From the NCBI RefSeq assembly GCF_057098645.1, contig NZ_CM169472.1: a DNA stretch of 64,000 nucleotides, one strand, 5' to 3'. A program made the position numbers and the translations under genes. The notes under the pieces are model-generated. The model did not search any database and was not told where the DNA came from. It saw nothing but the letters and a program-made list of their open reading frames with translations. Shown in pieces: positions 38,686 to 58,573 of the stretch (positions are counted from its first letter, which is position 1; every line of letters begins with the position of its first letter).

Positions 38686-41544
38686 ATGAATAAGCAAAAT
38701 TATGCACCTGGTATGCGGGTGGTTATTCGTGATGCCGAATGGCGTATTCGCCGGGCGGATGACAGTGGTGATGGTGGGTATTTGCTGACCTGCGATGGTA
38801 TTTCAGAGCTTGTGCGCGGTAAAGAAGGGTTATTTCTGACCAAACTGGAACAAAAAGTAGAGATCCTGGATCCCGCAAAAACGCATTTGGTGGAAGATGA
38901 ATCCGCCAATTATCAAGCGGCGCAGTTGTATATCGAAAGTCAGTTACGCCAACGCGTACCGACAGACAGTAAAGTCCATTTTGGTCATCTGGCGGCGATG
39001 GATTCCATGCCGTTTCAGCTCGATCCTACGCGGATGGCGCTGGCACAACCGCGTCAGCGGATACTCATTGCCGACGCTGTCGGTCTGGGTAAAACGCTGG
39101 AAGCGGGTATTCTGGTTTCGGAGCTGATCCGTCGTGGGCGCGGAAAACGTATTCTGGTTCTGGCGGTCAAATCGATGCTGACACAATTCCAGAAGGAGTT
39201 CTGGAGCCGTTTTGCGATCCCATTGACCCGCCTGGATTCTGCTGGTTTACAAAAGGTGCGTAACCGCATCCCAACCAACCACAACCCGTTCCACTATTTT
39301 GACAAGACCATTATCTCCATCGATACGCTGAAACAAGACATTGAATATCGTCACCATCTGGAAAATGCCTGGTGGGATATTATTGTCATTGATGAGGCCC
39401 ATAACGTCGCAGAACGTGGAACCAGTTCGTTACGCAGTAAACTGGCAAAACTGCTCGCCGGGCGTAGCGATACGCTGATTATGCTTTCAGCAACGCCGCA
39501 TGATGGTAAGGCTGAAAGTTTTGCCAGCCTGATGAACATGCTTGACCCGACGGCGATCGCCAACCCGAAAGAGTATGAATACGCCGACTTTGCCGATAAA
39601 AATCTGGTTGTCCGTCGCTTCAAAAAAGACGTGAAAGATCAGATGTCCGGCGAGTTCCCCGAGCGCAATATTGTCAAATTGACTCGCCTGGCATCCGGTG
39701 CCGAAGAAGAAGCATACCGTCGTCTGGTTGAGAGCCAGTTCCGTGATGATGACGATGAACAGGCCCAGTCTAACAAAGGTCGTCTGTTCAAGATAACCCT
39801 CGAAAAAGCGCTATTTTCCAGCCCGATGGCGTGTGCCAGCGTCGTGGCGAATCGTCTGAAGCGTCTTGAGAGCCGTAAAGATCATAATAGCCAGAGCCAG
39901 ATCAACGAACTGGAGTCATTGCTGTTGGCGCTGAATAACATTGATGCCAGCCAGTTTAGCAAATACCAGTTGCTGCTCGACACCATCCGAAAAGACCTCG
40001 CCTGGAAAGCCAATAACACGGAAGATCGCCTGGTGATCTTCACCGAAAGTATTAAAACGCTGGAGTTCCTCGAACAGCAACTGCGAGCGGATCTGAAATT
40101 GAAAGATGACCAGATCGCCACGCTGCGCGGCGATCAGGGCGATACGGTATTGATGGAAACCGTAGAAGCCTTTGGTAAAACGCAGTCGCCGTTGCGTCTT
40201 CTGGTTTGTTCGGATGTGGCATCTGAAGGGATCAACTTGCATCACCTTAGCCACAAAATGATTCACTTTGATATTCCGTGGTCGTTGATGGTATTCCAGC
40301 AACGTAACGGGCGTATTGACCGCTATGGGCAAAAACATCAGCCCCAAATCCGCTATCTGCTTACTGAGGCCAGCGAACCACAGATCAATGGCGATATGCG
40401 CGTACTGGAAGTGTTGATCAACAAAGACGAACAGGCGCAGAAGAACATTGGGGACAGTTCGGAGTTTACCGGCAAATTTACCCAGGAAGAGGAAGAAGAG
40501 CAGGTTGCAGAGTTCATGATGCAGGATGATGGTGCCAGCCTGTTTGATCAACTGCTGAACAGCAACGTCTCGGAAAGCGCCGAACACGATCTGTTTGGCG
40601 AAATATGCAGTGCGGTTTCCAGCGATGCCTCAATGGTCACCGAAGCAGACACCAGCTTGTTTGCCAGCGAACAGGCGTACTGCGAAAGAGCATTGGGTTA
40701 CCTGAAAGCCAGTGGTCAAACTATCCAGTATGAAACCTTGCCTGATAATACCTTGTCGCTGGTGGCACCGGAGGAGTTACGCCGCCGCTTCAACCAGCTA
40801 CCGCCTGAAATCGCCCCGGAGAACTGGCAGCTCTATTTAAGTCAGGATAAAACCGTCATCACCGACGCGATTGCACGCGCTCGCGGTGAGCAACATGCCT
40901 GGCCCGATGTGCAGTATCTCTGGCAAATCAACCCGGTAGTGCAGTGGCTGGACGATAAAATCTCTTCGGCTTTTGGTCGTCATCAGGCACCAGTTATCCG
41001 TCTGCCATACCTGCTTGAACCCGATGAAGATCACTTCATTCTTTCCGGGTTATTCCCGAACCGTAAATCACATCCGATGGTGAACCCGTGGATAGTGGTG
41101 AGCTTTAACCGTGAATCGCTAATCGGCAGTCAGCCATTCGCTGAGTTTTTACAACGTCATCCGCAGTTGAGTAACAAGCTGACTAACAGCGGCGGTAAAG
41201 ATCGTAATCACCAACGCCAGCAGGATTTACTTGAAGCGGCTATTGCTCATGCCCGGGAGGTATTCATCCATGATCGGAATGCGTTTGAAACGCACATTAA
41301 CCAGCAACTGAATGAGCATCTGCAAAAGCTGGACGTTTTGCGTGGGCGGCAGTTGAGCCAACTTGAGCTGGATTTTGCCGATAATAAACAGCAATTGTCA
41401 GTCAAGCAGAGCCGTAAAGAGCAGAGACAACGCGAAATCGAACACAATTTTGACAGCTATATCGAATGGATTGAGGACACCATGACGACTGAAAAAGAAC
41501 CCTACATTCAGGTAATTGCTGTTATCACCGGAGCGGAGGGTTAA
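38686..41544 (+). CDS. SNF2-family helicase (DrmD-like)
   Basis: 952 aa; motif I ADAVGLGKTLEAG, DEAH box VIDEAHNV, LSATPH, helicase C-terminal motif QQRNGRIDRYGQK. Confidence 0.8.
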   Translation: MNKQNYAPGMRVVIRDAEWRIRRADDSGDGGYLLTCDGISELVRGKEGLFLTKLEQKVEILDPAKTHLVEDESANYQAAQLYIESQLRQRVPTDSKVHFGHLAAMDSMPFQLDPTRMALAQPRQRILIADAVGLGKTLEAGILVSELIRRGRGKRILVLAVKSMLTQFQKEFWSRFAIPLTRLDSAGLQKVRNRIPTNHNPFHYFDKTIISIDTLKQDIEYRHHLENAWWDIIVIDEAHNVAERGTSSLRSKLAKLLAGRSDTLIMLSATPHDGKAESFASLMNMLDPTAIANPKEYEYADFADKNLVVRRFKKDVKDQMSGEFPERNIVKLTRLASGAEEEAYRRLVESQFRDDDDEQAQSNKGRLFKITLEKALFSSPMACASVVANRLKRLESRKDHNSQSQINELESLLLALNNIDASQFSKYQLLLDTIRKDLAWKANNTEDRLVIFTESIKTLEFLEQQLRADLKLKDDQIATLRGDQGDTVLMETVEAFGKTQSPLRLLVCSDVASEGINLHHLSHKMIHFDIPWSLMVFQQRNGRIDRYGQKHQPQIRYLLTEASEPQINGDMRVLEVLINKDEQAQKNIGDSSEFTGKFTQEEEEEQVAEFMMQDDGASLFDQLLNSNVSESAEHDLFGEICSAVSSDASMVTEADTSLFASEQAYCERALGYLKASGQTIQYETLPDNTLSLVAPEELRRRFNQLPPEIAPENWQLYLSQDKTVITDAIARARGEQHAWPDVQYLWQINPVVQWLDDKISSAFGRHQAPVIRLPYLLEPDEDHFILSGLFPNRKSHPMVNPWIVVSFNRESLIGSQPFAEFLQRHPQLSNKLTNSGGKDRNHQRQQDLLEAAIAHAREVFIHDRNAFETHINQQLNEHLQKLDVLRGRQLSQLELDFADNKQQLSVKQSRKEQRQREIEHNFDSYIEWIEDTMTTEKEPYIQVIAVITGAEG

Positions 41545-41546
41545 TC

Positions 41547-44500
41547 ATGGCGCTGGTCGGTATTAATAACGAAAACGAATTTTACTCTAACCACTATTTG
41601 GGTGAGGTTTTCACCAGTGATATCCGCGATGTGCTGGAACCCTGGATAGCCAAGGAAAATGCAGCGCGTGAAGCGGAGCGTGCCGCTCGTGAACAGGGCA
41701 AAGACGTGGAGCCGGGATACCGCGCTCCGTGGAACCAGTTTAACAGTCTGGCGACTGAGTTTTTCCGCAAACTTGCCGAGCACGAAAAACAGCGTCAGAT
41801 CCCGCAGCGTCTGGCCGATCAACGTAATCGCTGGCAGCCATTGTTAAAGGCGCTGGGCTACGAAATTACGCCACAGATCCAAATGCTGGATGACGATACA
41901 CCGCTGCCGGTACTGGCGCGTTACAACAGCACTGACGGTAGCCCGTGGCTGTGGATTGTTGAAGCACACGATCAGGAAGAAGGAACGCTGGATCCGCTGG
42001 CGCTCTCCTTACTGACCGCGCAATTCCCGGCGGATACCGACAAACATAAGCGCGACAGCCTGCGCAAAAAAGCCAACGGTGAATATCGCAGCTGGCAGGA
42101 TCTGCTCTCTACGGCGGTCTTCACCCAAAATGAACCGCCGCGTTTTGTGCTGCTGCTCGGTAACCGTCAGCTCTTGTTGTTGGACCGTACTAAGTGGGCG
42201 CAAAACCGTCTGCTACGTTTTGATTTTGAAGAGATTTTAAGCCGTCGTGAAACGGATACGCTGAAAGCGACTGCGGTGTTGTTACATAAAGATTCTCTGC
42301 TGCCGGGCAGTGGGGCACCTTATCTTGACTCGCTGGATGACAATTCGCACAAACATGCGTTTGGTGTTTCGGAAGATCTGAAATATGCCCTGCGCGAAAG
42401 CATTGAGTTGCTGGGCAACGAAGCGATGCATTATCTGATCGACCGTGGCCTGGCAAACTATACCGGTAACCGTGCGGTGGACCCGGATGAACTGAGCCGC
42501 GAATGTCTGCGTTACATGTACCGCCTGCTGTTCCTGTTCTACATTGAAGCGCGCCCGGAGCTGGGTTATGCGCCAATGACTGCCAAAACTTATCTACAGG
42601 GCTACAGCCTGGAAACGTTGCGCGATCTGGAGATGATCCCGCTGACCAGCGAAGAAGATCGCAACGGGCGCTACTTCCACGACAGCCTGAATATGCTGTT
42701 TAAACTGGTGCGCGAAGGCTACAACGGCGGCGTGAAAATGCAGAGTGACCTGGAGAGCGGCGACCGGATCACCATCCATAGTCATCAGTTCAGCGTCCCG
42801 CGTCTGGAAAGTCATCTGTTTGATGCCAACAACACGCGCATTCTTAACCGCGTGGTATTCCGTAACGAAACCCTGCAACAGATTATCCAGGCGATGTCGT
42901 TAAGCCGCCCGGCCAAAGGGCGCTTTAACCGCCGCGGACGTATTTCTTATCGCCAGTTGGGTATCAACCAGTTGGGTGCGGTGTATGAGGCGCTGCTCTC
43001 CTATCGTGGATTCTTCGCCAGCGAAGACCTCTACGAGGTGAAGAAAGCCGGGGAAGAGTTTAACGAGCTGGAGACAGGTTACTTCGTCAGTAAGGATGAG
43101 ATTGGCAAATACCACGAAGACGAGAAGGTCTACGAGAAAGACGGCAGTCTGCGCATTCACCGCAAAGGCAGCTTTATCTACCGTATGGCCGGGCGCGACC
43201 GTGAGAAATCTGCCTCTTATTACACCCCGGAAGTGCTGACCCGCTCACTGGTTAAATATGCCCTGAAAGAACTGTTTAAGGAGCAGATTGATCCCATTAG
43301 CGATCCGCACGCCAAAGCTGATGCCATCTTAAACCTCACCGTGTGCGAACCGGCGATGGGCAGCGCGGCGTTCCTTAACGAAGCCATCAACCAGCTGGCG
43401 GAAGCGTATCTGTTCCACAAGCAGCAGGCGGAAGGTCGCCGTATTCCGCAGGATCGTTACACCCAGGAGTTACAGCGGGTGAAAATGTACATTGCCGACA
43501 ACAACGTTTTCGGCGTGGACTTAAACCCGGTGGCGGTGGAACTGGCGGAAGTGTCACTGTGGTTGAACGCCATCAGTGGCGATGCCTTTGTACCGTGGTT
43601 TGGTTACCAGCTGCACTGCGGTAACTCACTGGTGGGCGCGCGCCGTCAGGTGTTCAACAAGAGTGAACTGACCTACAAAAAAGCCAAAGATCCGAGCTGG
43701 CTTAACAGCGAGCCGGTCGAACTGGCGATGAACACGCCGCGTGAAGAGACGCAGATTTTCCACTTCCTGCTGCCCGACGGCGGTATGGCTAACTACAGCG
43801 ATAAAACTGTTAAGCAGCGTTATCCGGATGACTTCAAAGCCCTGGACAGCTGGCGCAAAGAGTTTATTAAAAGCTTTGCCGGGCATGAGATTGCTGATGT
43901 GCAGCGTATCAGCGAAAAGGTGGAAGCTCTGTGGAACACTTATCGCCAACAACTTAAAGCAGAACGTCTGAAAACCGCCGACAGCTACCCGGTGTGGCCG
44001 GCAGAAAACAGCGAGCAGACGCGTTCTTCGCTGAGCAGTAAAGATGAAACCTTTAGCGGTCGTCTTGAAGATAACAGCGCCTACCAGAAGCTGCGTTGGG
44101 TAATGGACTACTGGTGCGCGCTGTGGTTCTGGCCGATCGACAAAGCCGATGAGCTACCGGATCGCGGCACCTGGTTGTTTGAGATTGAAACCCTGCTCGA
44201 CGGGATTGTAATCACGGAAAAAGTCACTGAAGTTGCGGAGCACACCACCGGCGATCTGTTTGCCGAAGAAGGCCTGCTGCGAGAAGAGTCTTCGCTGTTT
44301 TCCGTTGCTGGTCGTCTGAAAACCGAGGTGTTGTTCCGTCATTTGCCGCGTCTGGCGATTGTCGATGCCCTGAGAAAGCAGCACCGTTTCTTCCACTGGG
44401 ATCTGGAGTTCTGCGACCTGTTTGCCGAGCGCGGCGGTTTTGACCTGATGCTCGGAAACCCGCCGTGGCTGAAAGTGGAATGGCAGGAAGCGGGCGTGCT

Positions 44501-46457
44501 GGGTGATTACGAGCCGGAATTTGTGCTGCGTAAGCTGAGCGCCTCGAAGCTGGCAACGTTGCGTGTTGATACCTTTAACCAGATCCCGGCACTGGAAGCG
44601 GCCTGGCGCAGCGAGTATGAAGGCTGTGAAGGGATGCAAAACTTCCTCAATGCGCAGCAGAACTACCCGGTACTAGCAGGACAAAAAGCGAATTTGTATA
44701 AATGTTTTCTACCTCTGGGGTGGCGCTTAGGGGCGCAGAAAGGTGTCGTAGGGTTCCTGCATCCGGAAGGAATTTATGAAGACCCGAAAGGGGGAAAACT
44801 GCGTGGGGCGGTCTATCCAAGGTTAAGAGCTCATTTTCAGTTTCAAAATCAGCATATGCTTTTCCCTATCGGTGACAGGGTTAAGTTTAGTATTAATATC
44901 TACACCGCGTTTGTAAGTGATCATATTGGCTTCATTAGTATTGCAAACTTATTCTCGGCAAAAACGATTGAACTGTGTTTGTCGCATGATGGAACTGGAG
45001 AAGTGGGTGGTATTAAAGATGACGAAACCGACTCATGGAACGAATCAGGACACCAAAGCCGCATATTGAAAGTATCGTTAGAGCGGCTTTCCTTGTTTGC
45101 TAATTTGTATGATGAGCTAGGTATACCTGCGATTGAGGCCAGATTACCTGCTCTTCATGCGGATCACTTGGTGTCTGTGCTTGAGAAATTTGCTAAGCAG
45201 CCAACTAGATTGAGTGACTTAGAAAAAGACTATTATTCAACCCAACATTGGAACGAAGTTAATGCTCAGGATGATGGGATAATCAGACGCGAAACCCAAT
45301 TCCCGGAAGACGCATCCCAATGGATTTTGTCTGGTCCGCACTTCTATGTTGGAACACCGCTTTATAAAACGCCGAGAGAAATTTGCACAGAGAAAGGACA
45401 TTATGACTGCCTGGACTTGCTAACTCTGCCCGACGACTATCTGCCGCGCACTAACTATATTCCAGCATGTGATGCACAGGAGTATGCAAAGCGCACCCCA
45501 CGGGTTTCGTGGAAAGAACAGGATGAAGACGAGCCGAGGAAGGTGACGGATTATTATCGTCATATAAATCGAAGAGCCATTGGTTGTTCTTCGGAGCGAA
45601 CTGCTATAGGTGCAATTATACCCAAAGATGTCGCTCATATAGATGGGGGATTCTCATTAACTTTCAAAGACCCTAAACAACTGGTGATTTTTAATACCAG
45701 CTTCAATTCCTTACCTTTTGACTTTGTAATTAAAACAACGGGTAAAAGCGATTGTCGGGCGGAATTAGTAAAAATTTTACCAATGCTTTCAGATATAGGG
45801 ACAAGGCTATTTGCTCGGGGCTTAGTTAATAATGCAATAACAGCGCATTACTCCGATCTCTGGCAATCCTGCTACACCCCAGACTTCAACACCCAGCGTT
45901 GGAGCCGCGATCTCCCGCTGCTGCCCCAGGATTTCTTCGCCAATCTGACCCCAGAGTGGCAGCGTAACTGCGCCTTACGCTCCGACTACAGCCGCCGTCA
46001 GGCGCTGGTGGAAATCGACGTACTGGTGGCGCAGGCGCTGGGGTTAACCCTCGAAGAGCTGCTTACCATTTACCGTGTACAGTTCCCGGTTATGCGCCAG
46101 TACGAAGCGGACACCTGGTACGATCAAAACGGTCGTATTATCTTTACCCCAAGCAAAGGGCTGGTGGGCGTTGGCTTGCCGCGTACCGCGCGTAAAGCTG
46201 ACCTGAAAAACGGCTTTGTCTTTAACGTCGACAGCCCGGACTGGACCGGCGGTGACTGCACCGATCAAGCCATCGGCTGGGATGATGTCAAACATCTTAA
46301 AACTGGTACCGTCAGCGTCACCTTTGATGACTATACCCGCAGCGACGAAGGCGAGCGCCGTACCGTCACCTGGCAGGCACCGTTTATCAAGCCGGATCGC
46401 GAAGACGACTACAAAGTGGCCTGGGCGTTCTTTGCACAAGATAAGGAGAGCGCCTGA
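41547..46457 (+). CDS. Large N6-adenine DNA methyltransferase (Eco57I/DrmMI/PglX-like)
   Basis: 1636 aa; SAM-binding motif CEPAMGSAAFL, catalytic NPPW (LMLGNPPWLKV); start 2 nt after the SNF2 stop. Confidence 0.8.
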   Translation: MALVGINNENEFYSNHYLGEVFTSDIRDVLEPWIAKENAAREAERAAREQGKDVEPGYRAPWNQFNSLATEFFRKLAEHEKQRQIPQRLADQRNRWQPLLKALGYEITPQIQMLDDDTPLPVLARYNSTDGSPWLWIVEAHDQEEGTLDPLALSLLTAQFPADTDKHKRDSLRKKANGEYRSWQDLLSTAVFTQNEPPRFVLLLGNRQLLLLDRTKWAQNRLLRFDFEEILSRRETDTLKATAVLLHKDSLLPGSGAPYLDSLDDNSHKHAFGVSEDLKYALRESIELLGNEAMHYLIDRGLANYTGNRAVDPDELSRECLRYMYRLLFLFYIEARPELGYAPMTAKTYLQGYSLETLRDLEMIPLTSEEDRNGRYFHDSLNMLFKLVREGYNGGVKMQSDLESGDRITIHSHQFSVPRLESHLFDANNTRILNRVVFRNETLQQIIQAMSLSRPAKGRFNRRGRISYRQLGINQLGAVYEALLSYRGFFASEDLYEVKKAGEEFNELETGYFVSKDEIGKYHEDEKVYEKDGSLRIHRKGSFIYRMAGRDREKSASYYTPEVLTRSLVKYALKELFKEQIDPISDPHAKADAILNLTVCEPAMGSAAFLNEAINQLAEAYLFHKQQAEGRRIPQDRYTQELQRVKMYIADNNVFGVDLNPVAVELAEVSLWLNAISGDAFVPWFGYQLHCGNSLVGARRQVFNKSELTYKKAKDPSWLNSEPVELAMNTPREETQIFHFLLPDGGMANYSDKTVKQRYPDDFKALDSWRKEFIKSFAGHEIADVQRISEKVEALWNTYRQQLKAERLKTADSYPVWPAENSEQTRSSLSSKDETFSGRLEDNSAYQKLRWVMDYWCALWFWPIDKADELPDRGTWLFEIETLLDGIVITEKVTEVAEHTTGDLFAEEGLLREESSLFSVAGRLKTEVLFRHLPRLAIVDALRKQHRFFHWDLEFCDLFAERGGFDLMLGNPPWLKVEWQEAGVLGDYEPEFVLRKLSASKLATLRVDTFNQIPALEAAWRSEYEGCEGMQNFLNAQQNYPVLAGQKANLYKCFLPLGWRLGAQKGVVGFLHPEGIYEDPKGGKLRGAVYPRLRAHFQFQNQHMLFPIGDRVKFSINIYTAFVSDHIGFISIANLFSAKTIELCLSHDGTGEVGGIKDDETDSWNESGHQSRILKVSLERLSLFANLYDELGIPAIEARLPALHADHLVSVLEKFAKQPTRLSDLEKDYYSTQHWNEVNAQDDGIIRRETQFPEDASQWILSGPHFYVGTPLYKTPREICTEKGHYDCLDLLTLPDDYLPRTNYIPACDAQEYAKRTPRVSWKEQDEDEPRKVTDYYRHINRRAIGCSSERTAIGAIIPKDVAHIDGGFSLTFKDPKQLVIFNTSFNSLPFDFVIKTTGKSDCRAELVKILPMLSDIGTRLFARGLVNNAITAHYSDLWQSCYTPDFNTQRWSRDLPLLPQDFFANLTPEWQRNCALRSDYSRRQALVEIDVLVAQALGLTLEELLTIYRVQFPVMRQYEADTWYDQNGRIIFTPSKGLVGVGLPRTARKADLKNGFVFNVDSPDWTGGDCTDQAIGWDDVKHLKTGTVSVTFDDYTRSDEGERRTVTWQAPFIKPDREDDYKVAWAFFAQDKESA

Positions 46458-49400
46458 TGCTGCCGTCCGTTGTCAGTCGGCAGGTCGCCGACAGCGTTGC
46501 CGCCTTTTTACGGGCGGCGTTCCCGCTAAACAGCCCGCTGTTTAACGGTGAGAATAACGATAATGTCTCAATGCTGGAGCAATTTCTGGCCCAGCCCGAA
46601 ACGCTGCTGAAAGGACCATACCTTTCCGCCCAGTTGCCGTTTCGTAAAAGTGACTTACCACTGAATTTCTTCCCTAATCTGACGCTGCCGTTCCCGCCGC
46701 ACGCGCATCAGGCCCGGGCATTTCAGCGTCTGGGAAGCGACGCGCCACAGCCGACACTGGTCGCTACCGGTACCGGCTCCGGTAAAACAGAATGCTTTAT
46801 GTTCCCGCTGCTCAACCACTGCGCGGGCGCGTCACATGCCGGGGTTAAAGCGATTATCATCTACCCGATGAACGCCCTGGCAACCGATCAGGCCAGCCGT
46901 TTCGCCAAAACCATCGCCAGCGATCCACAACTGCATGGCAAGGTGACCGTCGGCTTGTTTGTCGGCGACAGCGAAATCGAACCCAGCAAGAAAATGTCGG
47001 CAGAAAAGGTCATTACCTGCAAGCACACGCTGCGCGAAAGCCCGCCGGACATCCTGTTGACCAACTACAAAATGCTCGACTACCTGCTGATGCGCCCTGG
47101 CGATCAGCCGCTCTGGCGTTACAACCAGCCCGGTTCATTGCGTTACCTGGTCGTGGATGAATTGCATACGTTTGATGGCGCGCAAGGGTCGGATCTGGCC
47201 TGTCTGGTGCGACGTCTGAAGCATCACATAGGTGTGGATAACCAACGATTCGCCTGCGTCGGGACATCAGCTACCGTCGGCGACGAACTGGGGCAACTGC
47301 TCGATTACGCAAAAACAATCTTTGACCAGCCGTTTACCGATGACGCCGTTATTCGCGAAGATCGCTACACGGCAGCGGAGTACTTGCAGGATTATGCCAT
47401 TGCGTACAGTCAGTATCCGGGGCCGGAGGCCGCTTCGGCCCTGGACCCGCAGAGTTACTCTACCCCGGTAGCGTATCTCAACGGGCAAATCCCTTTGTGG
47501 TTCCCCGACAGCGATTTGCAACTCCCGGACGATCTGGAGAGCGACGACGGGCGTGAAAAGCGTATTGCGCTGGGGTCACTGTTACGCCGCCACAGCGTGA
47601 TGCATGTCTTACTCCATGATCTGCAAGGCGGGATCCTCTCTGAGCGAGAGTGTCTGGAAAATCTCCAGGTCATGCTGGCAGAAAGCGCCGACCATGCCCG
47701 ACGCGTGCTGCAAAGCATTCTGGCGCTGATCGCGCAGGCACGTCTCGAAGTACCGGAAACGGAACACGATCGTCAAAAACGTCTCCAGGCGAAGAAAGCG
47801 CGTCCGGTGCTGCCGTTTGTGCAACTGCGCTCCCAGTTGTGGCTTCGTGAGATGCGTCGTCTGGTCGCCAGCGTGGCGAAAACGCCGCGACTGGTGTTTG
47901 CCGATGATGTGGCGGTGGAAGACCGCGAACACTATTTGCCGGTTATCCACTGCCGTGACTGCCATGCAACCGGCTGGGCCAGCCTGCGTCATGGGCAAAG
48001 CGTTCAGCTGGAAACAGACCTCGACGGCATTTATCGCCAGTTCTTTGAAAAAGGGCGCTCCATCGTCCTCGCTTTCCCGGATAATAACGAAAAAGCGGTC
48101 AGTGGCGCACACCAGAAACTGTGTCCTACCTGTCTGAAACTTAACCGACAGTCCAGCGTCCAGTGTGGACATTGCGGTCATACGGAACTGTTGCAGGTAC
48201 TGATCCCGGATATGCTCAAAGAGCGTAAGGACGAGCTGGAGTTTGCTAATGAATGCCCGTACTGCAACAGCAAACAGGGGATTTCGATCCTGGGGTCACG
48301 GGCTGCCAGTCTGTCGGCGGTGATGATTCACCAGCTTTATGGCAGCCAGTTCAACGAACATAAAAAGCTGATTACGTTTTCTGACTCGGTACAAGACGCC
48401 GCGCATCGTGCCAGCTTCTTTACTGCCCGAACCTGGCCGCTGATGATTCGTGGGCAAATCGCCAGTGTTCTTGGCGAAAAAGAGACATTACCGCTGGATG
48501 CGTTCGCGGCGCGTGTTTGCCAACAAACGCGTGAACGTTCACCGGACGATGCTCATTTTGCAGCGAACTTCATCGCACCAAATATGCAGTGGCTGAATGA
48601 TTATCAGACGCTGAAAAATGAAGGCAAACTGGCGGAGAACTCCGATCTGCCGGAGCTGGTTTCCCTGCGCCTCGACTGGGAGGTGTACAGCGAATTTACC
48701 CTGCGCGCGCGTATCGGACGTACGCTGGAAGCCACCGGTTATGCCGTTGCCGGAGTGGATAAAGATCGCTTTAATCCGGCAATTACCGCCCTGCATCAAC
48801 AGCTTTGTGAAGAGCTGGGTGATGAGATGTCCGGTGTGAGCGTCGAGCAGGTAGCGCACCTGGCGCTGGGGGTTATCTGGTATCAACGCCAGGCCGGGGC
48901 CGTTATGCATCCGGCGTTCGAAAGTTATCGCCGTGATGGCACGACCTTTATGATGACGCAAAAAGAGCGTACATCGCGCTATATGCCTTCTATCGGTCCG
49001 AAAACGCGTAAACCGGCTTATGCGTCGTTTGAAAAAATTAATGGTTTCCATCGCCTGATTGGCGCGAAGTCTAACCCCAGTTGGTATCAGCATTGGATCA
49101 ATCGCACGCTGAGTAACGGCAATAATCTGTTTATCAGTAGCGTTGCGGAAACAGTGTTACGACGCCTGTTTACGGCGTTGAAAATAGCCGGAGTAGTAAA
49201 AGATTTTGACACCAAAGGGCGTGAAGCCTGGGGACTGGTGCCTTCGGCGCTGGTGGTGAGCCGTGACGTCGTTCAGCTTAATTGCTCATGTTGCCGTGAG
49301 GTTGTCCGGGCTCCGGCCGATCAAGGCTGGCAGTGGCGTAATGCGCCTTGTCTCTCTTTACGTTGTGAAGGTCGTTACCTAGAAGTCGACAATATGGCGA

Positions 49401-52400
49401 CCTGGCGTTGGGAGAACATGGACATCGCGCGCGTGCAGGGCGCAGAACACACGGGGCTGCTTAGCCGTGAAGATCGCGAAGCCACCGAAAAATCGTTCTA
49501 CCGCGGCAACCAACCGTGGAATATCAACCTGTTGTCGGCAACACCGACGCTGGAGATGGGTATTGACGTTGGGGATCTTTCCACCGTTTTACTCTGTTCT
49601 GTCCCACCTGCTCAGGCCAACTACTTGCAACGTATTGGTCGCGCCGGTCGTAAAGATGGTAACGCGTTAAACATTACCGTGGCAGAAGGGAACCCGCACG
49701 ATCAGTTTTTCTTTGAAGAACCACTGGAGATGATGCAGGGCCAGGTGCAGGCTCCTGGCGTCTTCCTCAATGCAACGGCTATTCTCGAACGCCAGCTGGC
49801 AGCTTTTTGTATGGATAACTGGGTGAAAACCGGTGTACCAGAATCCGCTATCTGTAAAAACGTCAAACAGATGCTGGATGAGCTGGAGTTCGGGCGTAAA
49901 TCGGGTTTTCCGTATAACTTACTGCGATATATCGAACAGCATCATGCGGAGATTGCTGCGCAATTTACGGCAATCTTCCCCGATCTTGCCGCAGAAACTC
50001 GCCAACAGCTGTTGTCTTATCTTCAGGGCGCGCCAGGACAACGCTCGCTGGTGCAGCGTATCGAAGAAGCGTTAAAACTGCTGGTGGAAGATCGCAAATC
50101 TTTGCGCTCACGCATCGATAAACTCAAGCGCAGTATCGATAAACTGGAGAACGCGCCGCGCGATCAAAACTTTGATAGCGATATGCGCGAGTTAACTTCG
50201 GAACGGCAGGCGCTGATGGCGCTGGTCAATCAAATCAACAATAAGCAAACGCTGAATTTCCTCACGGATGAAGGTCTGCTGCCTAACTACGCCTTCCCGG
50301 AAGCCGGTATTACGTTACGTTCTGTGCTCTGGCGGCGTAAAGAAGGCGGGGAAGCACGTGAATATCAAAACACCACTTTCGAATATGAACGCCCGGCATC
50401 AACGGCGCTGGCTGAGCTGGCTCCGCTGAATAATTTCTATGCCGGTGGGCATAAAGTTGAAATTGAGCAGATAGACCTGAAGGTCTCTGAGCCGGAGAAC
50501 TGGCGTATCTGTAGCCACTGTAACTACAGCGAAAATATCGACCAGACGGGCGACCAGCATAAATATTGCCCGAAATGTGGCACACCGGGGTGGGCCGATG
50601 CCGGACAAAAAACCACGCTGCTGAAACTTCGCCAGGTTTATGCCCGCGCCAGCGCACGTGATAGCCAGATCAGCGACGAGAGCGACAGCCGTGAACCTGC
50701 TTTCTTCCAGCGTCAGCTATTGGTTAGTTTCGAAAAAGAAGATGTATCGGCGGCATACGCGATTGAGGAAGGCGAAGTTCCGTTTGGTTTTGAATTTTTA
50801 AGCAAAGTCACCCTGCGGGATATCAACTTCGGCAAAATGGCGGATGATGCCAATGAGTTGATGATTGCCGGAGAAGCGAAGAAGCGAACCGGGTTTAAAG
50901 TTTGCCTCGGGTGCGGCATGGTGCAGCGTCCTCGCGATCATGAACCACGTCATGATTTGAGCTGCAAATATCGCACGGAACCGGAAAAGGCGAAGTTCGA
51001 AGATTATCTCTACCTCTATCGCCAGCTGGAGTCAGAAGCGTTGCGTATTCTGCTCCCGGTAAGCAGTTACAGTAATGACCGTGTCGTGGAGGCTTCTCTT
51101 GGGGCGGCGATCCAGCTCGGTCTTAAACATTACTTCAAGGGGAATGTCGATCACCTGAAAGGCGTTGTGTACCGCGAGCCGGAAAATGAAGGCGAATCCT
51201 GGCGGCAGTATCTGGTGATTTACGATACCGTCCCGGGGGGGACTGGTTCTCTTAAAGAACTGATGCGCACTCCCGACAATTTGCTGAAATTACTTGAACT
51301 GGCCTATCAGGCAATAGTGGAATGCAGTTGCAACAATGATACGCATAAAGATGGTTGTTATCGTTGCGTTTACGCTTACCGTGACCGTGGGCGCATGAAG
51401 TATGTCTCCCGCGATCAGGCGCGTCTCTTGCTGGCGAAAATTTTGCAGGCAAGAGATTCGATACGGGTAATTGATTCCATCAAAAACATTTCCCTCGAAG
51501 CCATGATGGGCAGTGAGCTGGAAAAACGGTTTATTAGCTGCCTGCAAGAAAATAAAAACCTGATTGTCAGTCGCAGTTACGCGCATCAGGGCGCTGGGTG
51601 GATTATTAACACCCGCAGCGAACCGATGATGAGCTGGCATCTTAAAGCTCAGGTGGATTTAGGCGCTAAAGAGGCGGTGGGGATCCCTTGTCGCCCGGAT
51701 TACGTGCTATATCCGCTTATGCAGTCTGATGCCATTAAACCGGTGGTTATTTTCCTTGATGGCTTTGCGTTCCACAAAAATAGCGTCGCAGAGGATGTGC
51801 AAAAACGCCAGGCGATTCGGGATAGCGGTAATTTCTGGGTGTGGACAGTCACGTGGGCCGATCTCAAAGAGCCTGGGCTTAAACATGTTCAGGATGTCCT
51901 GGGACTTGGGCATAACCCGGATATGAAACAGCCTAAGTTTTATAACCTGTTTCATGATACCAACTTTGCGGCCCTTGAAGCGTCGTTCCGGGAACGCAAC
52001 AGTTTTGCACTGCTGCTGGATTATCTCGCCGATCCGGGCGGAAGAACGCAGTTATGGCAGAGAATGGCTGCTGCACATGCCTGGGTGTGGTTGGATGTGA
52101 AGAAGTCACAGGACGCGGGAACGAAACAAAAGTATGCCTATGAAATGCAGGAAAACGCGCCAGCCTGGCGGCTAGCAGAGCTTTTGCCAGACGAACCGTT
52201 TGTCTTTGGTGGTTTACTCGATAGCTGTAACTCATCGCAGCAATTTATTGAGCTGGCTTCGGTGTTGCCACAACAAGCCATTAAACCGACGACCAGCGTC
52301 GCACAAATGCGCAGCTGGCTGCGTTTGCATATCTGTTTTGACGATCGCTATACGCAGGATGACGGTTATGAAGCGGGACTCAATGGCTTCTGGCGACTGG

Positions 52401-52798
52401 TAAACCTGTTACAGTTCCTGCCGGATATGACCTTTACCAGCCGTAAAGCCGTGCATTTACCGCAGGAAAGCGTTGACACTAAAGTTTCGGCAACGCCAGA
52501 GGCAGTACCAGAGACTGATGAGAGTTGGGCTGAGATTATTGAGTTTGGCTTATTAAGCGCTGAAGAGATCGCGTTGCTTCAGTCTCATTCTCTCTCTGCG
52601 CCGACTCTCGGCTACGAATTGCAAAATGATGAAGGTGAAATTATTGCGGAAGCCGATCTCGCCTGGCCATCACAAAAATGGGCATTGATTATTGATAATC
52701 AAGAATTTATTCCATTATTCACAACCAGGGGTTGGCACGTTGCATTCGGGCCAATTGACGAAAATACATTGCAACATCTGTCCGGAGGTGACAAATGA
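46457..52798 (+). CDS. Second giant DEAD/DEAH-box helicase with C-terminal Cys-rich (DUF1998-like) region; DrmA/DrmB-fusion-like or DruE-like
   Basis: 2113 aa; motif I ATGTGSGKTECF, motif II VVDELHTFDG, motif VI QRIGRAGRKDG at about aa 1060, zinc-ribbon-like CSHCNYS..CPKCG and CSCNN..CYRC; ATG overlaps the MTase stop (TGATG). Confidence 0.75.
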   Translation: MLPSVVSRQVADSVAAFLRAAFPLNSPLFNGENNDNVSMLEQFLAQPETLLKGPYLSAQLPFRKSDLPLNFFPNLTLPFPPHAHQARAFQRLGSDAPQPTLVATGTGSGKTECFMFPLLNHCAGASHAGVKAIIIYPMNALATDQASRFAKTIASDPQLHGKVTVGLFVGDSEIEPSKKMSAEKVITCKHTLRESPPDILLTNYKMLDYLLMRPGDQPLWRYNQPGSLRYLVVDELHTFDGAQGSDLACLVRRLKHHIGVDNQRFACVGTSATVGDELGQLLDYAKTIFDQPFTDDAVIREDRYTAAEYLQDYAIAYSQYPGPEAASALDPQSYSTPVAYLNGQIPLWFPDSDLQLPDDLESDDGREKRIALGSLLRRHSVMHVLLHDLQGGILSERECLENLQVMLAESADHARRVLQSILALIAQARLEVPETEHDRQKRLQAKKARPVLPFVQLRSQLWLREMRRLVASVAKTPRLVFADDVAVEDREHYLPVIHCRDCHATGWASLRHGQSVQLETDLDGIYRQFFEKGRSIVLAFPDNNEKAVSGAHQKLCPTCLKLNRQSSVQCGHCGHTELLQVLIPDMLKERKDELEFANECPYCNSKQGISILGSRAASLSAVMIHQLYGSQFNEHKKLITFSDSVQDAAHRASFFTARTWPLMIRGQIASVLGEKETLPLDAFAARVCQQTRERSPDDAHFAANFIAPNMQWLNDYQTLKNEGKLAENSDLPELVSLRLDWEVYSEFTLRARIGRTLEATGYAVAGVDKDRFNPAITALHQQLCEELGDEMSGVSVEQVAHLALGVIWYQRQAGAVMHPAFESYRRDGTTFMMTQKERTSRYMPSIGPKTRKPAYASFEKINGFHRLIGAKSNPSWYQHWINRTLSNGNNLFISSVAETVLRRLFTALKIAGVVKDFDTKGREAWGLVPSALVVSRDVVQLNCSCCREVVRAPADQGWQWRNAPCLSLRCEGRYLEVDNMATWRWENMDIARVQGAEHTGLLSREDREATEKSFYRGNQPWNINLLSATPTLEMGIDVGDLSTVLLCSVPPAQANYLQRIGRAGRKDGNALNITVAEGNPHDQFFFEEPLEMMQGQVQAPGVFLNATAILERQLAAFCMDNWVKTGVPESAICKNVKQMLDELEFGRKSGFPYNLLRYIEQHHAEIAAQFTAIFPDLAAETRQQLLSYLQGAPGQRSLVQRIEEALKLLVEDRKSLRSRIDKLKRSIDKLENAPRDQNFDSDMRELTSERQALMALVNQINNKQTLNFLTDEGLLPNYAFPEAGITLRSVLWRRKEGGEAREYQNTTFEYERPASTALAELAPLNNFYAGGHKVEIEQIDLKVSEPENWRICSHCNYSENIDQTGDQHKYCPKCGTPGWADAGQKTTLLKLRQVYARASARDSQISDESDSREPAFFQRQLLVSFEKEDVSAAYAIEEGEVPFGFEFLSKVTLRDINFGKMADDANELMIAGEAKKRTGFKVCLGCGMVQRPRDHEPRHDLSCKYRTEPEKAKFEDYLYLYRQLESEALRILLPVSSYSNDRVVEASLGAAIQLGLKHYFKGNVDHLKGVVYREPENEGESWRQYLVIYDTVPGGTGSLKELMRTPDNLLKLLELAYQAIVECSCNNDTHKDGCYRCVYAYRDRGRMKYVSRDQARLLLAKILQARDSIRVIDSIKNISLEAMMGSELEKRFISCLQENKNLIVSRSYAHQGAGWIINTRSEPMMSWHLKAQVDLGAKEAVGIPCRPDYVLYPLMQSDAIKPVVIFLDGFAFHKNSVAEDVQKRQAIRDSGNFWVWTVTWADLKEPGLKHVQDVLGLGHNPDMKQPKFYNLFHDTNFAALEASFRERNSFALLLDYLADPGGRTQLWQRMAAAHAWVWLDVKKSQDAGTKQKYAYEMQENAPAWRLAELLPDEPFVFGGLLDSCNSSQQFIELASVLPQQAIKPTTSVAQMRSWLRLHICFDDRYTQDDGYEAGLNGFWRLVNLLQFLPDMTFTSRKAVHLPQESVDTKVSATPEAVPETDESWAEIIEFGLLSAEEIALLQSHSLSAPTLGYELQNDEGEIIAEADLAWPSQKWALIIDNQEFIPLFTTRGWHVAFGPIDENTLQHLSGGDK

Positions 52799-54909
52799 CG
52801 GTGCAAACGCCCAAGGTGGCACTTTCTGATGGTTTTCTGGGCGCATTCGCGCGGATCCCAAAGGCACAGCAAAAAAAGGTGCAGGAATTCATCTCCAAAT
52901 TCCGTCAGGACCCGACCAGTAATGGACTTAACTATGAAAAGATCCACGATGCGCGCAGTAAAAATGTCCATTCGGTGCGAATCGATCAAACTTATCGCGG
53001 CATTGTTCTGAAACCTGAACAGGGTGCCCTGTATATGCTGATGTGGGTGGATAAACACGACGAAGCATACGACTGGGCGCGGCGGCATGATTGTTCGATT
53101 CACCCGGTTACCGGCGCGATTCAGGTCATTGATATTAGCTATATCAAACCGGCACCGGAAGCGGTGGTTGATAAACCGAAACTCTTCGCGGCTTACAGCG
53201 CGGAACAGATTCTGGCCCTGGGCGTGCCGCCTGTCTTTATTGATCAGGTGATGGCGCTTACCGATGAAGCCGGGCTTAATCAACTTGAAAGCATAATGCC
53301 AGCAGAAGCCTGGGAACCTCTGCACTGGCTGGCAGAAGGGCTGGATTACCAGGAAGTGCTGGAAGAGTTTAACGATCATCATGATGAGCCTGTTGATACC
53401 AACGACTTTATGGAGGCGATTGAACGAAGTAAACGTCGCTTCCATGTCGTTGAAAATGAACAGGAGCTGTTGCAGATGCTTAATGCGCCTTTAGAAAAAT
53501 GGCGTGTATTTCTGCATCCGAGCCAGCGAAAACTGGTGGAGTCGCCCGCTAATGGTCCGGTACGAGTACTGGGCGGTGCAGGTACAGGGAAAACGGTTGT
53601 TGCGATGCACCGTGCGCGGTGGTTATCTCAGCGTCTGGCAGATAAACCCGGTAAGAAGGTACTTTTCACGACCTTTACGCGTAACCTGGCGGCAGATATT
53701 CGCGCTAATCTCCAGCGGTTGTGTACGCGAGAAGAGATGGCGCGTATTGACGTCGTTAACATTGATGCCTGGATGAGCGACCAACTAAAACGCCACGGTT
53801 ATGATTTCCGCGTGGTATACGACAGCGATGAAGGGCGACGCAAATGCTGGAACTATGCCTTGCAGCAGGCACCTGCCGAACTGGGGCTACCTGACAATTT
53901 CTATGCTGAAGAGTGGCAACGCGTTGTCCAGCCAAATGCGGTTTACACCCGGGAGGAATACCTCAAAGTCAGCCGGGTTGGACGTGGTACAGCGTTATCC
54001 CGTATTCAACGGGCGAAAATCTGGCCAGTCTTTGAAGAATTCAGAGCACAAATGGCGCGTGCCAAACTGCGCGAAATGGGCGATGCCATGCATGAGGCTA
54101 TTGTTCTGTTTAAAGAAAAACAGGTTCAACTACCTTATAGCAGTATTGTGGTCGATGAAGCTCAAGATATCGGTGCCCCGGCATTTACTCTTATTCGCAG
54201 CCTGGTTCCCGAGTCGCCCAACGATCTGTTTATTGTCGGGGATGGGCATCAGCGTATTTATCGCAATAAGGTCGTTCTTGGTCAGTGTGGTATTAACGTC
54301 CGTGGTCGTCGCAGTAAAAAATTGAAGATTAACTATCGGACCACAGAAGAGACGCGTCAATTTGCTGTTGGGCTGTTAACTGGTGTGAAGGTTGATAACC
54401 TCGATGGCGAAGCGGATACCAGTAATGATTATTTGTCATTACTGCACGGGGAAAAGCCCATGATTACGCATGCGGCAGATTTCAAAGAAGAGGCTGCAAC
54501 GCTCGTCAAGCAAATTCAGGCATTGCTGGCGAATCAGGTTCGTTCTCAGGATATCTGCATTACTGCGCGTACTAAACATGCTTGTGACCGCTACGCATCA
54601 GCACTGAATGACGCCGGAATTGAGACATTTAATTTAGGCAATGATAGCGGTGACAGCGATGCACGCCCTGGCGTGCGGGTTGCAACGATGCACCGTATTA
54701 AAGGGCTTGAGTTCCAGTATGTGTTCCTGGTGGGGATTAACGAAGGCGTTGTGCCGGAAATAAAAGCATTAGCATCCGATGATCCCGTTGAACAGCGTGA
54801 TGCATTATTTAATGAGCGCGCGTTACTGCATGTGGCTGCAACCCGTGCCGTAAAAGGGCTGTTTGTTTCATCATCTGGTGTCCCTAGTCCGCTATTAGTG
54901 GCTGACTGA
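52795..54909 (+). CDS. UvrD/Rep-like superfamily 1 helicase with about 230-aa N-terminal domain of unknown function
   Basis: 704 aa; Walker A GGAGTGKT, motif II VVDEAQD, C-terminal TMHRIKGLEFQYVFL; start overlaps the upstream stop (ATGA). Confidence 0.75.
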   Translation: MTVQTPKVALSDGFLGAFARIPKAQQKKVQEFISKFRQDPTSNGLNYEKIHDARSKNVHSVRIDQTYRGIVLKPEQGALYMLMWVDKHDEAYDWARRHDCSIHPVTGAIQVIDISYIKPAPEAVVDKPKLFAAYSAEQILALGVPPVFIDQVMALTDEAGLNQLESIMPAEAWEPLHWLAEGLDYQEVLEEFNDHHDEPVDTNDFMEAIERSKRRFHVVENEQELLQMLNAPLEKWRVFLHPSQRKLVESPANGPVRVLGGAGTGKTVVAMHRARWLSQRLADKPGKKVLFTTFTRNLAADIRANLQRLCTREEMARIDVVNIDAWMSDQLKRHGYDFRVVYDSDEGRRKCWNYALQQAPAELGLPDNFYAEEWQRVVQPNAVYTREEYLKVSRVGRGTALSRIQRAKIWPVFEEFRAQMARAKLREMGDAMHEAIVLFKEKQVQLPYSSIVVDEAQDIGAPAFTLIRSLVPESPNDLFIVGDGHQRIYRNKVVLGQCGINVRGRRSKKLKINYRTTEETRQFAVGLLTGVKVDNLDGEADTSNDYLSLLHGEKPMITHAADFKEEAATLVKQIQALLANQVRSQDICITARTKHACDRYASALNDAGIETFNLGNDSGDSDARPGVRVATMHRIKGLEFQYVFLVGINEGVVPEIKALASDDPVEQRDALFNERALLHVAATRAVKGLFVSSSGVPSPLLVAD

Positions 54910-54925
54910 TAATATGTCCAAAACA

Positions 54926-54951
54926 GACCAGGAGCCGAAACGCTCCTGGTC
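54926..54951 (+). terminator. Stem-loop after the UvrD-like gene (weak terminator candidate)
   Basis: gaccaggagc-cgaaac-gctcctggtc hairpin 17 bp after the stop; no strong U-tract. Confidence 0.35.
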
Positions 54952-55861
54952 TATATAACCGTTCTGGCAACTGGCGATATTTATATTGCTTAGCTCCCAA
55001 CAGCCAGACAATATCAACTTAGAAATTATATTCGCTTATGCGGTTTGCATATTGCACAGTACAACCTGTTTTCTCTATATCTAACGTAACGTCAGGATGT
55101 GGATGATTTTTGGATGGGGTGACACACTGGACAAATATAGCTGGCACGAAAAGGCTGGCATTTCCAGCTGACCAATAGTCTCTGGAACCATGATGATGAT
55201 AAAATAAATATCTTAAGTTTTAAACGTATGATGCCAGGATTACCAGAATTATAAACGAATATATTAGTTCTTTTCTATTTGTTCAGGAGGGGTATAAAAA
55301 TTGCAATTGTTAATAGTATCGTCAGGACGATAAAAAGATAATCATGACAAAGGAAATTGAACTAAAATGATTGACATTTTACAGGTGGTTTGTCAGTGAT
55401 TTCTTGTTATTCATAATTTATTTTCCGTAAAAAATAGTAAGGTGATCACCTGAATAAAGGTAATCTCATATTTTGATGAGTATAGTGATTTTTTATTTCT
55501 CTGGTGAGGAATGAAGGAAATATCAATGGTAAGGAACGTCAGAGAATCAGGGAAAATTAAGGTCCCTCAGAAACACAATGCCGTTCACTTAAGCGGGGCG
55601 GCACTGTGTTTCACAGGATAACGGGTTTTTGATATCTTAACCGCCCTCGCCCTTGATGGTCGGGGGCGTTTTGTTATGAACACCACTTCCAGAGCCCCCG
55701 CAGATGCTCCAGTCGTTTCGGGATAGTCCCCGGTGACGCCGTGTTTCCCAGCACTATCATTTCTGTCACGATAAACTGGAACGCGAACTTAAAGCTGATC
55801 TCTGACGCCGCTTTTGTTGCCTCACGCCGTATCGCTCCGCTGGTAGGCGCGGTCATGGCAT

Positions 55862-56349: not shown

Positions 56350-56402
56350 GCCGGAGGAGTTAAAAGCGCTGATGGATGCGAATAAATCAAATTAATGAAC
56401 GC

Positions 56403-58554: not shown

Positions 58555-58573
58555 TGTGACTGTCTCCTGTCTA

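Follow-up and report, generated by a model that had tools for sequence, protein, structure and literature searches.

A DISARM-related, non-canonical operon identified as an intact, previously described ARMADA Type II (armABCD) anti-phage system

Organization of the operon and its flanking sequences

The window, which is the whole analysed stretch of 64,000 nucleotides from contig NZ_CM169472.1 (assembly GCF_057098645.1), contained four large open reading frames, all on the + strand, which together spanned positions 38686-54909 and correspond to armA, armB, armC, and armD (Table 1). The stop codon of armA was separated from the start codon of armB by a 2-nt gap (TAA-TC-ATG), armB and armC overlapped by 1 nt at TGATG, and armC and armD overlapped by 4 nt at ATGA. 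Shine-Dalgarno-like sequences, GGAGG or AAGGAG, were located shortly upstream of the starts of armB, armC, and armD. The coordinates, the gap and both overlaps were all as given in the initial annotation, which had proposed a coupled four-gene operon.

Table 1. Features of the arm locus, numbered from the first nucleotide of the window
Feature	Coordinates	Strand	Description
Hairpin between druE and armA	38469..38497	+	12-bp stem; -21.2 kcal/mol, z = -2.6
armA	38686..41544	+	952 aa; SNF2/RapA/BrxHII-like (DrmD-like) translocase
armB	41547..46457	+	1636 aa; PglX/DrmMI-like N6-adenine DNA methyltransferase, architecture type IIG-like; ORF intact
armB variable segment (aa ~1077-1470, ~400 residues)	44775..45956	+	Directly C-terminal to the methyltransferase core
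armC	46457..52798	+	2113 aa; YprA-family SF2 helicase-nuclease with clustered CxxC motifs
ArmC MZB/DUF1998 zinc-binding domain (aa 1549-1638)	51101..51370	+	Pfam PF09369, i-Evalue 7.7e-13; fused, no separate DrmB gene
ArmC Vsr-type PD-(D/E)xK nuclease domain (aa ~1685-1805)	51509..51871	+	Family-invariant D1748, D1768, H1773, R1784
Small alpha/beta domain at the end of ArmC (aa ~2021-2113)	52517..52795	+	PD-(D/E)xK-like topology (secondary structure)
armD	52795..54909	+	704 aa; RelE/YafQ/YoeB-fold N-terminus (aa ~5-115), helical linker, UvrD/GajB-like SF1 helicase (aa 240-695)
Hairpin 16 nt 3' of the armD stop	54925..54952	+	11-bp G+C-rich stem; -24.5 kcal/mol fold, z = -4.9

Stable hairpins were found on both sides of the operon, and none of 200 shuffled sequences reached the folding energy of the downstream one. 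A canonical T-run was absent after both hairpins on the + strand. Since a scan for promoter and terminator consensus sequences called neither hairpin and gave regional site counts that were not above those of shuffled sequences, the earlier description of the operon as bracketed by terminator-like hairpins held for the hairpins themselves, while their identity as terminators was not established. A terminator role is nevertheless plausible. The hairpin downstream of armD is likely the end of the transcription unit, and the one between druE and armA may be a terminator or attenuator of druHE. The native arm promoter would lie in the 188 nt between this hairpin and armA. In the constructs of Bell et al., the cluster was kept "under its native promoters" (PMC12458937).

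The neighbours of the operon were Zorya II (zorA2, zorB2, zorE) and Druantia III (druH, druE), both detected at full length with very high PADLOC scores, which bore out the proposed location in a defence island with Zorya and Druantia operons. The island ran from Zorya II through Druantia III to ARMADA II and adjoined leuX, the same context as in the published copies.

Domain composition of the Arm proteins

ArmA contained the Pfam domains SNF2-rel_dom and Helicase_C, with K136 in Walker A and D236 in Walker B, and its nearest sequence matches in the PDB were RapA. Among the PADLOC profiles, DrmD scored 333 bits and BrxHII 201 bits. The NCBIfam DrmD profile (NF038317) scored 350 bits against a cut-off of 610, and its best matched stretch was limited to residues 104-405.

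ArmB matched the PADLOC profile REase_MTase_IIG (PDLC03614) over almost its full length with 931 bits, and DrmMI with 191 bits. Fragments of the Pfam domains Eco57I and MmeI_Mtase were also detected, consistent with an N6-adenine methyltransferase of the Eco57I/MmeI type. G605 belonged to the SAM-binding GxG motif, and the catalytic NPPW began at N971. No nuclease domain was found in ArmB by Pfam. Compared with four other E. coli ArmB alleles, identity was 95-99% outside the variable segment and 49-63% inside it; the segment was ~55% identical to that of the O157:H7 allele, and at least 80% of it was covered in only 30 of 526 armB-carrying genomes. Because of its position relative to NPPW and the layout of PglX/MmeI-type enzymes, this segment is probably the target-recognition domain, and its reading as a specificity module is supported by the confinement of allelic replacement to residues ~1077-1470. 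In this putative recognition region, the window's ArmB departs from the O157:H7 allele used in the experiments, so that it probably reads a motif other than that of O157:H7.

In some O145 relatives, armB carried a frameshift or an IS insertion. In E. coli O145 RM9872, the arm operon was 99.9-100% identical to that of the window, but a 2-nt deletion frameshifted armB; this strain also lacked a P4-like element, which in the window lies beside leuX, and equating the window with RM9872 was rejected.

In ArmC, the Pfam domains DEAD (84-278), Helicase_C (993-1066), and MZB (1549-1638) lay in a single open reading frame, in agreement with the earlier reading of a helicase and a Cys-rich module fused in one protein. 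K110 and D234 were assigned to Walker A and Walker B. CxxC motifs were present at 499, 556, 570, 600, 943, 1352, 1371, 1483, and 1634, the first four of which fall between RecA1 (84-278) and Helicase_C. ArmC of ARMADA II has also been described with a BrxA-like insertion after RecA1, a zinc-binding beta-barrel module in which CxxC occurs at least twice, and a MarR-like insertion within RecA2; the location of the first four CxxC motifs would fit the zinc module. In the PDB, the sequence of ArmC matched 9tu7, a "DEAD/DEAH box helicase" of 2108 aa, as well as YprA/MrfA (6ZNP). The PADLOC profile DruE3 scored 347 bits and DrmA 49 bits, and the true DruE encoded next door scored 2183 bits. By these profile scores, ArmC is nearer to DruE than to DrmA. 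ArmC and the neighbouring DruE shared 34% identity in RecA1 and 23% across RecA2 and the canopy (~700 aa).

ArmD showed UvrD-helicase and UvrD_C domains from residue 240 onward, as proposed earlier for the 704-aa UvrD-like helicase that ends the operon, with K266 in Walker A and D454 in Walker B, and matched PADLOC GajB with 124 bits.

PDB sequence searches with ArmB, with residues 1601-2113 of ArmC and with residues 1-240 of ArmD gave no match, so fold-level searches were needed. Residues 1-240 of ArmD gave a confident RelE/YafQ/YoeB fold, which answers the proposal in the initial annotation that the structure of this region be predicted. Within it, E48, R62, R68, and H88 were invariant in 75 homologues and are similar to the catalytic Glu/Arg/His residues of YoeB. 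In three of three distant loci examined, the RelE-UvrD gene lay directly 3' of an MZB-containing gene, and an Eco57I-type methyltransferase was encoded upstream in one of them; these loci were obtained via homologues of the ArmD N-terminus, their operons were fragmented or pseudogenised, and they bear on the linkage of ArmC and ArmD rather than on the full four-gene arrangement.

The C-terminus of ArmC was predicted at the fold level to carry an active Vsr-type PD-(D/E)xK nuclease. The terminal domain lacked the canonical (D/E)xK motif. Residues 2021-2096 were matched by the PADLOC profile ZorE2 as well as by the NCBIfam ZorE profile, and the C-terminus aligned with residues 279-335 of ZorE at 40% identity over 57 aa by BLASTP. 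The number of homologues of the ArmC C-terminus depended on the method, with four matches in a word-indexed search and 932 in an exhaustive representative search. An inactivated Vsr-like terminal domain on ArmC was described by Bell et al., who reported that "often, but not invariably" the active nuclease is followed by inactivated EEP and Vsr domains in ARMADA II (PMC12458937).

Identity of the operon and alternative readings

The four-gene locus is an intact ARMADA Type II (armABCD) anti-phage operon, which is related to DISARM, non-canonical, and already known. The type was named, defined and validated by Bell et al. (bioRxiv, September 2025, PMC12458937) as a strict order of a BrxHII/SNF2-like helicase, a PglX-like methyltransferase, a YprA-like helicase and a GajB-like helicase. 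The copy of EDL933, z5899-z5902 on O-island 172, was characterised in a further study (doi 10.1101/2025.09.22.677730); both primary sources are preprints. The description of OI-172 as a "motility-associated island" (PMC3681947) is older, concerns z5898 (druE) and was regarded as having no bearing on what armABCD does. The open reading frames, junctions and family and domain searches gave the gene content and order of the Type II definition for the window. ArmC of Type II is described with a fused OB-CON-DUF1998 and as nearer to Druantia DruE than to DISARM DrmA; in the window, the helicase and DUF1998 were likewise fused and DruE3 outscored DrmA, the predicted active Vsr-type nuclease was C-terminal, and the RelE-like domain of ArmD preceded the GajB-like UvrD helicase. 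The copies of NCTC 12900, ATCC 8739, and EDL933, on which the phage assays were performed, have the same genes, order and domain architectures, including these domains of ArmC and ArmD, whereas the ArmB of the window carries another allele of the ~400-aa variable region.

All eight published sites at which mutation impairs defence were kept with the same numbering and within the motifs expected (K136 and D236 of ArmA, G605 and N971 of ArmB, K110 and D234 of ArmC, K266 and D454 of ArmD). Relative to the copy of O157:H7 strain 4276, which is not NCTC 12900 itself, two residues differed in ArmA, ten in ArmC and four in ArmD. The same operon occurred in 520 of the 5426 complete E. coli genomes, the sampled O157:H7 strains among them.

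The initial annotation had taken the operon for a candidate undescribed system, to be abandoned if all four genes belonged to a catalogued system of exactly this gene content. Such a system exists in the literature, and the claim of novelty falls; the relation to DISARM class 1 and the non-canonical build were upheld, the nameless status was not. The profile checks confirmed the domain calls. With PADLOC-DB v2 and NCBIfam, none of the four proteins received a name at the system level or above a cut-off; the PADLOC profiles, which gave only partial matches to DrmD, a type IIG methyltransferase, DruE, and GajB, date from 2023 and are older than the description of ARMADA. Taken by themselves, the PADLOC and NCBIfam results would have pointed to novelty, and this reading was corrected by the literature.

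[quoted passage not shown] One alternative is a divergent DISARM class 1 that arose by fusion of drmA with drmB, loss of drmC and gain of a UvrD gene. DrmD is indeed the best PADLOC and NCBIfam name for ArmA, ArmB matches DrmMI, the order parallels drmD-drmMI-drmA, and Bell et al. use the term "disARM-related" (PMC12458937). However, the DrmD score of ArmA was far under the curated NCBIfam cut-off, ArmC was a much better match to DruE than to DrmA, and the helicase and DUF1998 module, encoded by separate drmA and drmB in DISARM class 1, occupied a single 2113-aa ORF. The operon also has an extra RelE-UvrD gene, and searches of its four proteins with Pfam, PADLOC and NCBIfam yielded no family resembling the PLD nuclease DrmC, in line with the initial annotation; a Vsr-type nuclease was fused to the helicase instead. 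The published YprA phylogeny, moreover, groups ARMADA with Druantia and apart from DISARM (PMC12458937), which together makes this reading highly improbable. An arrangement in which ArmB would be a type IIG restriction-modification enzyme that works by itself, with the three adjacent helicases either accessory or unrelated to it, would agree with the near full-length match to PDLC03614 and with a putative recognition region that varies between alleles, as is typical of such enzymes. It is extremely improbable, given that ArmB had neither a Pfam nuclease domain nor a PDB relative by sequence, that translational coupling joins all four genes, that the linkage of ArmC and ArmD is kept in distant taxa, and that any single-gene deletion or helicase Walker mutation abolished defence, ArmB alone being insufficient (PMC12458937). 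The confident RelE/YafQ/YoeB fold and its invariant residues in ArmD could likewise point to abortive infection, in which helicases sense phage DNA and unleash mRNA cleavage by the RelE-like toxin domain as the effector. Assays with propidium iodide (PI) and with resazurin showed the protection by ARMADA II to be direct and non-abortive, with infected cells intact and metabolically unperturbed, and ARMADA Type I lacks ArmD entirely (both PMC12458937); deletion of armD was the least severe deletion in EDL933 (doi 10.1101/2025.09.22.677730). That ArmD acts in this way is hardly to be credited.

Other known systems shared components with the ARMADA II operon. DruE of Druantia III and ArmC are paralogous giant YprA-family helicase-nucleases, but a methyltransferase, SNF2 or UvrD partner is absent from Druantia III, and DruE pairs with DruH and ends in PLD-like domains whereas ArmC ends in Vsr-type domains; the arm operon does not belong to Druantia III, as its DruE3 match was only partial and DruH was absent. 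BREX type 1 resembles it in a PglX-like methyltransferase that is needed for defence and not solely for self-protection, in a BrxHII-like SNF2 helicase, and in a specificity that varies via a swappable methyltransferase region. Unlike BREX type 1, the operon lacks BrxA, BrxB, BrxC, PglZ, and BrxL and encodes a YprA helicase-nuclease together with a UvrD-like helicase. ArmD resembles GajB of Gabija in its UvrD/GajB-like helicase core, but the GajA partner is missing, and GajB has no N-terminal RelE-fold domain.

Proposed mode of action and significance

Phage resistance from the operon of the window is predicted from near-identical copies. In these, the ATPase motifs of ArmA, ArmC, and ArmD and the NPPW of ArmB were needed for defence, as shown by point mutants, and ARMADA II acted synergistically with Druantia III. 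[quoted passage not shown] In the absence of phage, the arm deletion mutants, including that of armB, grew as the wild type (PMC12458937; doi 10.1101/2025.09.22.677730). Because the methyltransferase is required for defence and the armB deletion mutant grows normally, the logic appears BREX-like rather than that of classical restriction-modification. The cloning into naive E. coli and challenge with a phage panel that had been proposed are already published for a near-identical copy, where the methylation motif of ArmB was not reported. Neither primary study reports a methylation motif, DNA cleavage, complex formation or a target of the RelE-like domain, and a 2026 review lists ARMADA among the systems that restrict phages "by unknown mechanisms".

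We infer that ARMADA works like BREX or DISARM. ArmB, a large N6-adenine methyltransferase that is type IIG-like and whose target-recognition region can be exchanged, would mark a host motif and double as the sequence reader that locates unmethylated motifs on incoming DNA. The SNF2/RapA-like translocase ArmA and the YprA-type helicase ArmC would then act on the DNA located by ArmB. The OB-CON-DUF1998 canopy of ArmC may engage ssDNA or DNA ends, and its Vsr-type nuclease domain may nick or cleave the DNA, by which replication would be blocked. ArmD, with its GajB-like UvrD helicase and RelE-fold domain, may aid processing or bring a further activity, possibly directed at RNA. An intact ARMADA Type II operon with such a BREX- or DISARM-like working is very probably the best explanation of the locus as a whole.

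The finding is a correct rediscovery and not a discovery. Its residual value lies in an intact copy with a non-O157 specificity allele of ArmB, in the independent structural-level confirmation that ArmD has a RelE-like and ArmC a Vsr-like domain, and in the record of a domain common to ZorE and ArmC. ARMADA II has been reported as the dominant phage-resistance determinant of EHEC O157:H7. Neither the domain shared by ArmC and ZorE nor the motif of the minority ArmB allele is addressed in PMC12458937 or doi 10.1101/2025.09.22.677730. A joint reading, in which the shared module is a docking or DNA-binding element and the minority allele of the window has a motif of its own, is speculative and rather unlikely. 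If true, the shared module would provide a physical or functional link between the Zorya, Druantia, and ARMADA systems, which move together, and this would help explain their conserved co-localisation and synergy, and the ArmB alleles would represent a natural specificity-swap series for self/non-self discrimination by ARMADA.

Identification of the operon

The operon armABCD is already known: it is ARMADA Type II. ARMADA, the "disARM-related Antiviral Defense Array", was defined by Bell et al. (PMC12458937), and the strict order of its Type II starts with a BrxHII-like helicase, a PglX-like methyltransferase, and a YprA-like helicase with a C-terminal Vsr-type nuclease. The system, published in two 2025 preprints that were located by full-text literature search, is matched exactly. 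The initial annotation had read the domains of the four proteins correctly and the feature is real, but its label "undescribed" was due to the limits of the reader's knowledge and to dated profile libraries. The eight residues that Bell et al. mutated all occupied the same positions in the window proteins, and ArmA, ArmC, and ArmD differed from those of O157:H7 strain 4276 at 2, 10, and 4 residues.

ARMADA Type II gives protection from 13 of 80 phages, and the cells neither die nor shut down their metabolism. Defence requires all four arm genes, the Walker motifs, and NPPW, and synergy with Druantia III was demonstrated in ATCC 8739 (PMC12458937). In EDL933, where O-island 172 holds armABCD as z5899-z5902, ARMADA II is the dominant defence, effective on many phage families but not on hypermodified Tevenvirinae; the defence mutants, single-gene arm deletions included, grew like the wild type without phage, and armB varies more than any other gene of the island (doi 10.1101/2025.09.22.677730). 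That z5899-z5902 form one contiguous block, found in Salmonella as well, had been noted in an older paper (PMC3681947).

The four ORFs lay exactly where they had been placed and are translationally coupled. The junctions read in the sequence were a 2-nt gap between armA and armB (TAA-TC-ATG), a TGATG overlap between armB and armC, and an ATGA overlap between armC and armD, with GGAGG or AAGGAG (Shine-Dalgarno-like) 5' of the three internal starts. Stable hairpins were present on both sides of the block, as had been claimed, while their role as terminators is only plausible, since both lacked a canonical T-tract and neither was called by a consensus terminator scan, whose counts were not above those of shuffles.

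Membership in DISARM failed on three features tested. ArmA scored 350 bits against NCBIfam DrmD, under the 610-bit cut-off; the helicase and MZB/DUF1998 were in one gene, whereas DISARM has drmA and drmB as separate genes; and the arm operon had no PLD gene, unlike DISARM.

Positions of features in the window, with the residues mutated by Bell et al. that are kept
Feature	Position	Strand	Details
P4-like satellite element	5923-20400		inserted at tRNA-Leu(CAA)
P4-like: integrase	6160-7446
P4-like: type II restriction endonuclease	7912-8730
P4-like: Dcm-like 5mC methyltransferase	8768-10021	minus
P4-like: isrK	13095-13172
P4-like: C4 antisense RNA	13271-13358
P4-like: alpha-type primase	17452-19785
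P4-like: psu, ogr/delta
IS21 element (istA/istB)	13835-16253		breaks up P4-like element
Hypothetical protein (RefSeq)	21021-23069	plus	682 aa
Phosphorothioated-DNA-binding restriction endonuclease (predicted)	23692-24720	minus	SBD-HNH type
nanM internal fragment	24632-24880		directly left of zorE
zorE	25104-26207	minus	C-terminal domain aa 279-335
Left hairpin	38469-38497		-21.2 kcal/mol, z = -2.6
armA	38686-41544	plus	952 aa; K136, D236
armB	41547-46457	plus	1636 aa; G605, N971
ArmB variable region, cassette-like	44775-45956	plus	aa ~1077-1470; allele comparison
CT deletion in O145 RM9872	45151-45152		2 nt
armC	46457-52798	plus	2113 aa; K110, D234
ArmC last domain	52517-52795	plus	aa ~2021-2113
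armD	52795-54909	plus	704 aa; K266, D454
Right hairpin	54925-54952		inside -24.5 kcal/mol fold, z = -4.9
Truncated nanS (sialate O-acetylesterase), complete nanM	56400-58660		right of armD, past transposase pseudogene

Domains of the Arm proteins

ArmA consisted of SNF2-rel_dom and Helicase_C (Pfam), with DrmD and BrxHII as its best family names (PADLOC) and RapA proteins as its nearest solved relatives by sequence. The PADLOC type IIG methyltransferase model covered almost all of ArmB (931 bits), and DrmMI matched it only weakly (191 bits). Pfam detected methyltransferase fragments of the Eco57I and MmeI types in ArmB but no nuclease domain, and an NPPW motif stood at residue 971. ArmD was UvrD/GajB-like from residue 240 on (PADLOC, Pfam), and a RelE-UvrD gene was found directly 3' of an MZB-containing gene in three distant loci.

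ArmC carried DEAD (84-278), Helicase_C (993-1066), and MZB/DUF1998 (1549-1638) in a single polypeptide (Pfam). It was much closer to DruE than to DrmA models (347 vs 49 bits, PADLOC) and is paralogous to the product of druE, the gene directly upstream of the operon. The EEP-like middle domain reported for the ArmC C-terminus in ARMADA could not be confirmed in the window ArmC; it is not invariably present (PMC12458937). Sequence comparison showed that ArmC ends in a homologue of the C-terminal domain of ZorE, the effector of the island's Zorya II system: 57 aa aligned at 40% identity (pairwise E = 4e-9), and the ZorE profiles of PADLOC and NCBIfam matched the ArmC domain as well. Its AF2 model showed a small PD-(D/E)xK-like alpha/beta core without the canonical catalytic motif. 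ZorE is not mentioned at all by Bell et al. (PMC12458937).

The defence island and its distribution

The proposed defence-island setting was borne out, with full Zorya II (zorA2, zorB2, and zorE, minus strand; PADLOC/NCBIfam) and Druantia III (druH of the YjiT family, and druE) operons adjoining the arm operon, both at very high scores. One further defence gene, the predicted SBD-HNH endonuclease (438 bits against NCBIfam NF045808, cut-off 180), bordered the Zorya operon on the left, and the 682-aa ORF within the island had no match whatever in PADLOC or NCBIfam. The island adjoins tRNA-Leu(CAA), where the P4-like element had no counterpart at the same site in RM9872. With nan remnants on both sides, the Zorya-Druantia-ARMADA block sits between split or duplicated nan genes, possibly a scar of its insertion.

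The window matches E. coli, and its arm operon was 99.9-100% identical to that of O145 RM9872 and about 98.5% to those of O157:H7 strains. A full-operon search placed it in 520 of the 5426 complete E. coli genomes; 23 of the matching places were on plasmids. One example is the 122-kb qnrS1 plasmid pQnrS1_005237 (NZ_CP026578.2), in which IS3 and IS1 remnants and a tyrosine recombinase flank the druHE-armABCD array. Satellites that target tRNA genes are therefore not the only route by which the array moves.

ArmB alleles and the proposed mechanism

Outside its variable region, ArmB shared 98.6% identity with the O157:H7 protein; inside, about 55%. Three further alleles showed the same pattern (about 50-63% between alleles inside, 95-99% elsewhere), so the region looks like an exchangeable cassette. 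About 30 of the 526 armB-carrying complete E. coli genomes shared the window allele (at least 80% of the segment covered), while the O157:H7 allele was the common one. The segment directly follows the methyltransferase core, the place taken by the target-recognition domain in PglX and MmeI-type enzymes, and is thus a putative target-recognition domain judged from position. The window copy therefore probably has a sequence specificity different from that of the tested systems.

The window armB was intact. In O145 RM9872 (NZ_CP028379.1) it was frameshifted by the CT deletion, in O145:NM FWSEC0002 it contained an IS3 element, and in further O145 records it was annotated as two split hypothetical proteins; these breaks may reflect either ongoing loss of ARMADA function in O145 lineages or assembly errors.

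In near-identical copies defence is broad, direct, and non-abortive, and all four genes with their ATPase and methyltransferase motifs contribute to it (PMC12458937; doi 10.1101/2025.09.22.677730). The logic may be BREX/DISARM-like: ArmB would mark self DNA and also read unmarked motifs, ArmA and ArmC would translocate on or unwind invading DNA, the Vsr-type domain of ArmC would nick or cleave it, and ArmD may assist, possibly by an RNA-directed activity. Neither preprint reports a motif, cleavage product, or complex, and a 2026 review groups ARMADA with systems whose mechanism of restriction is unknown. To the published system, the window adds a non-O157 ArmB allele, structural evidence, obtained independently, that confirms the RelE-like domain of ArmD and the Vsr-type nuclease domain of ArmC, and the homologous terminal domain that ArmC shares with ZorE.
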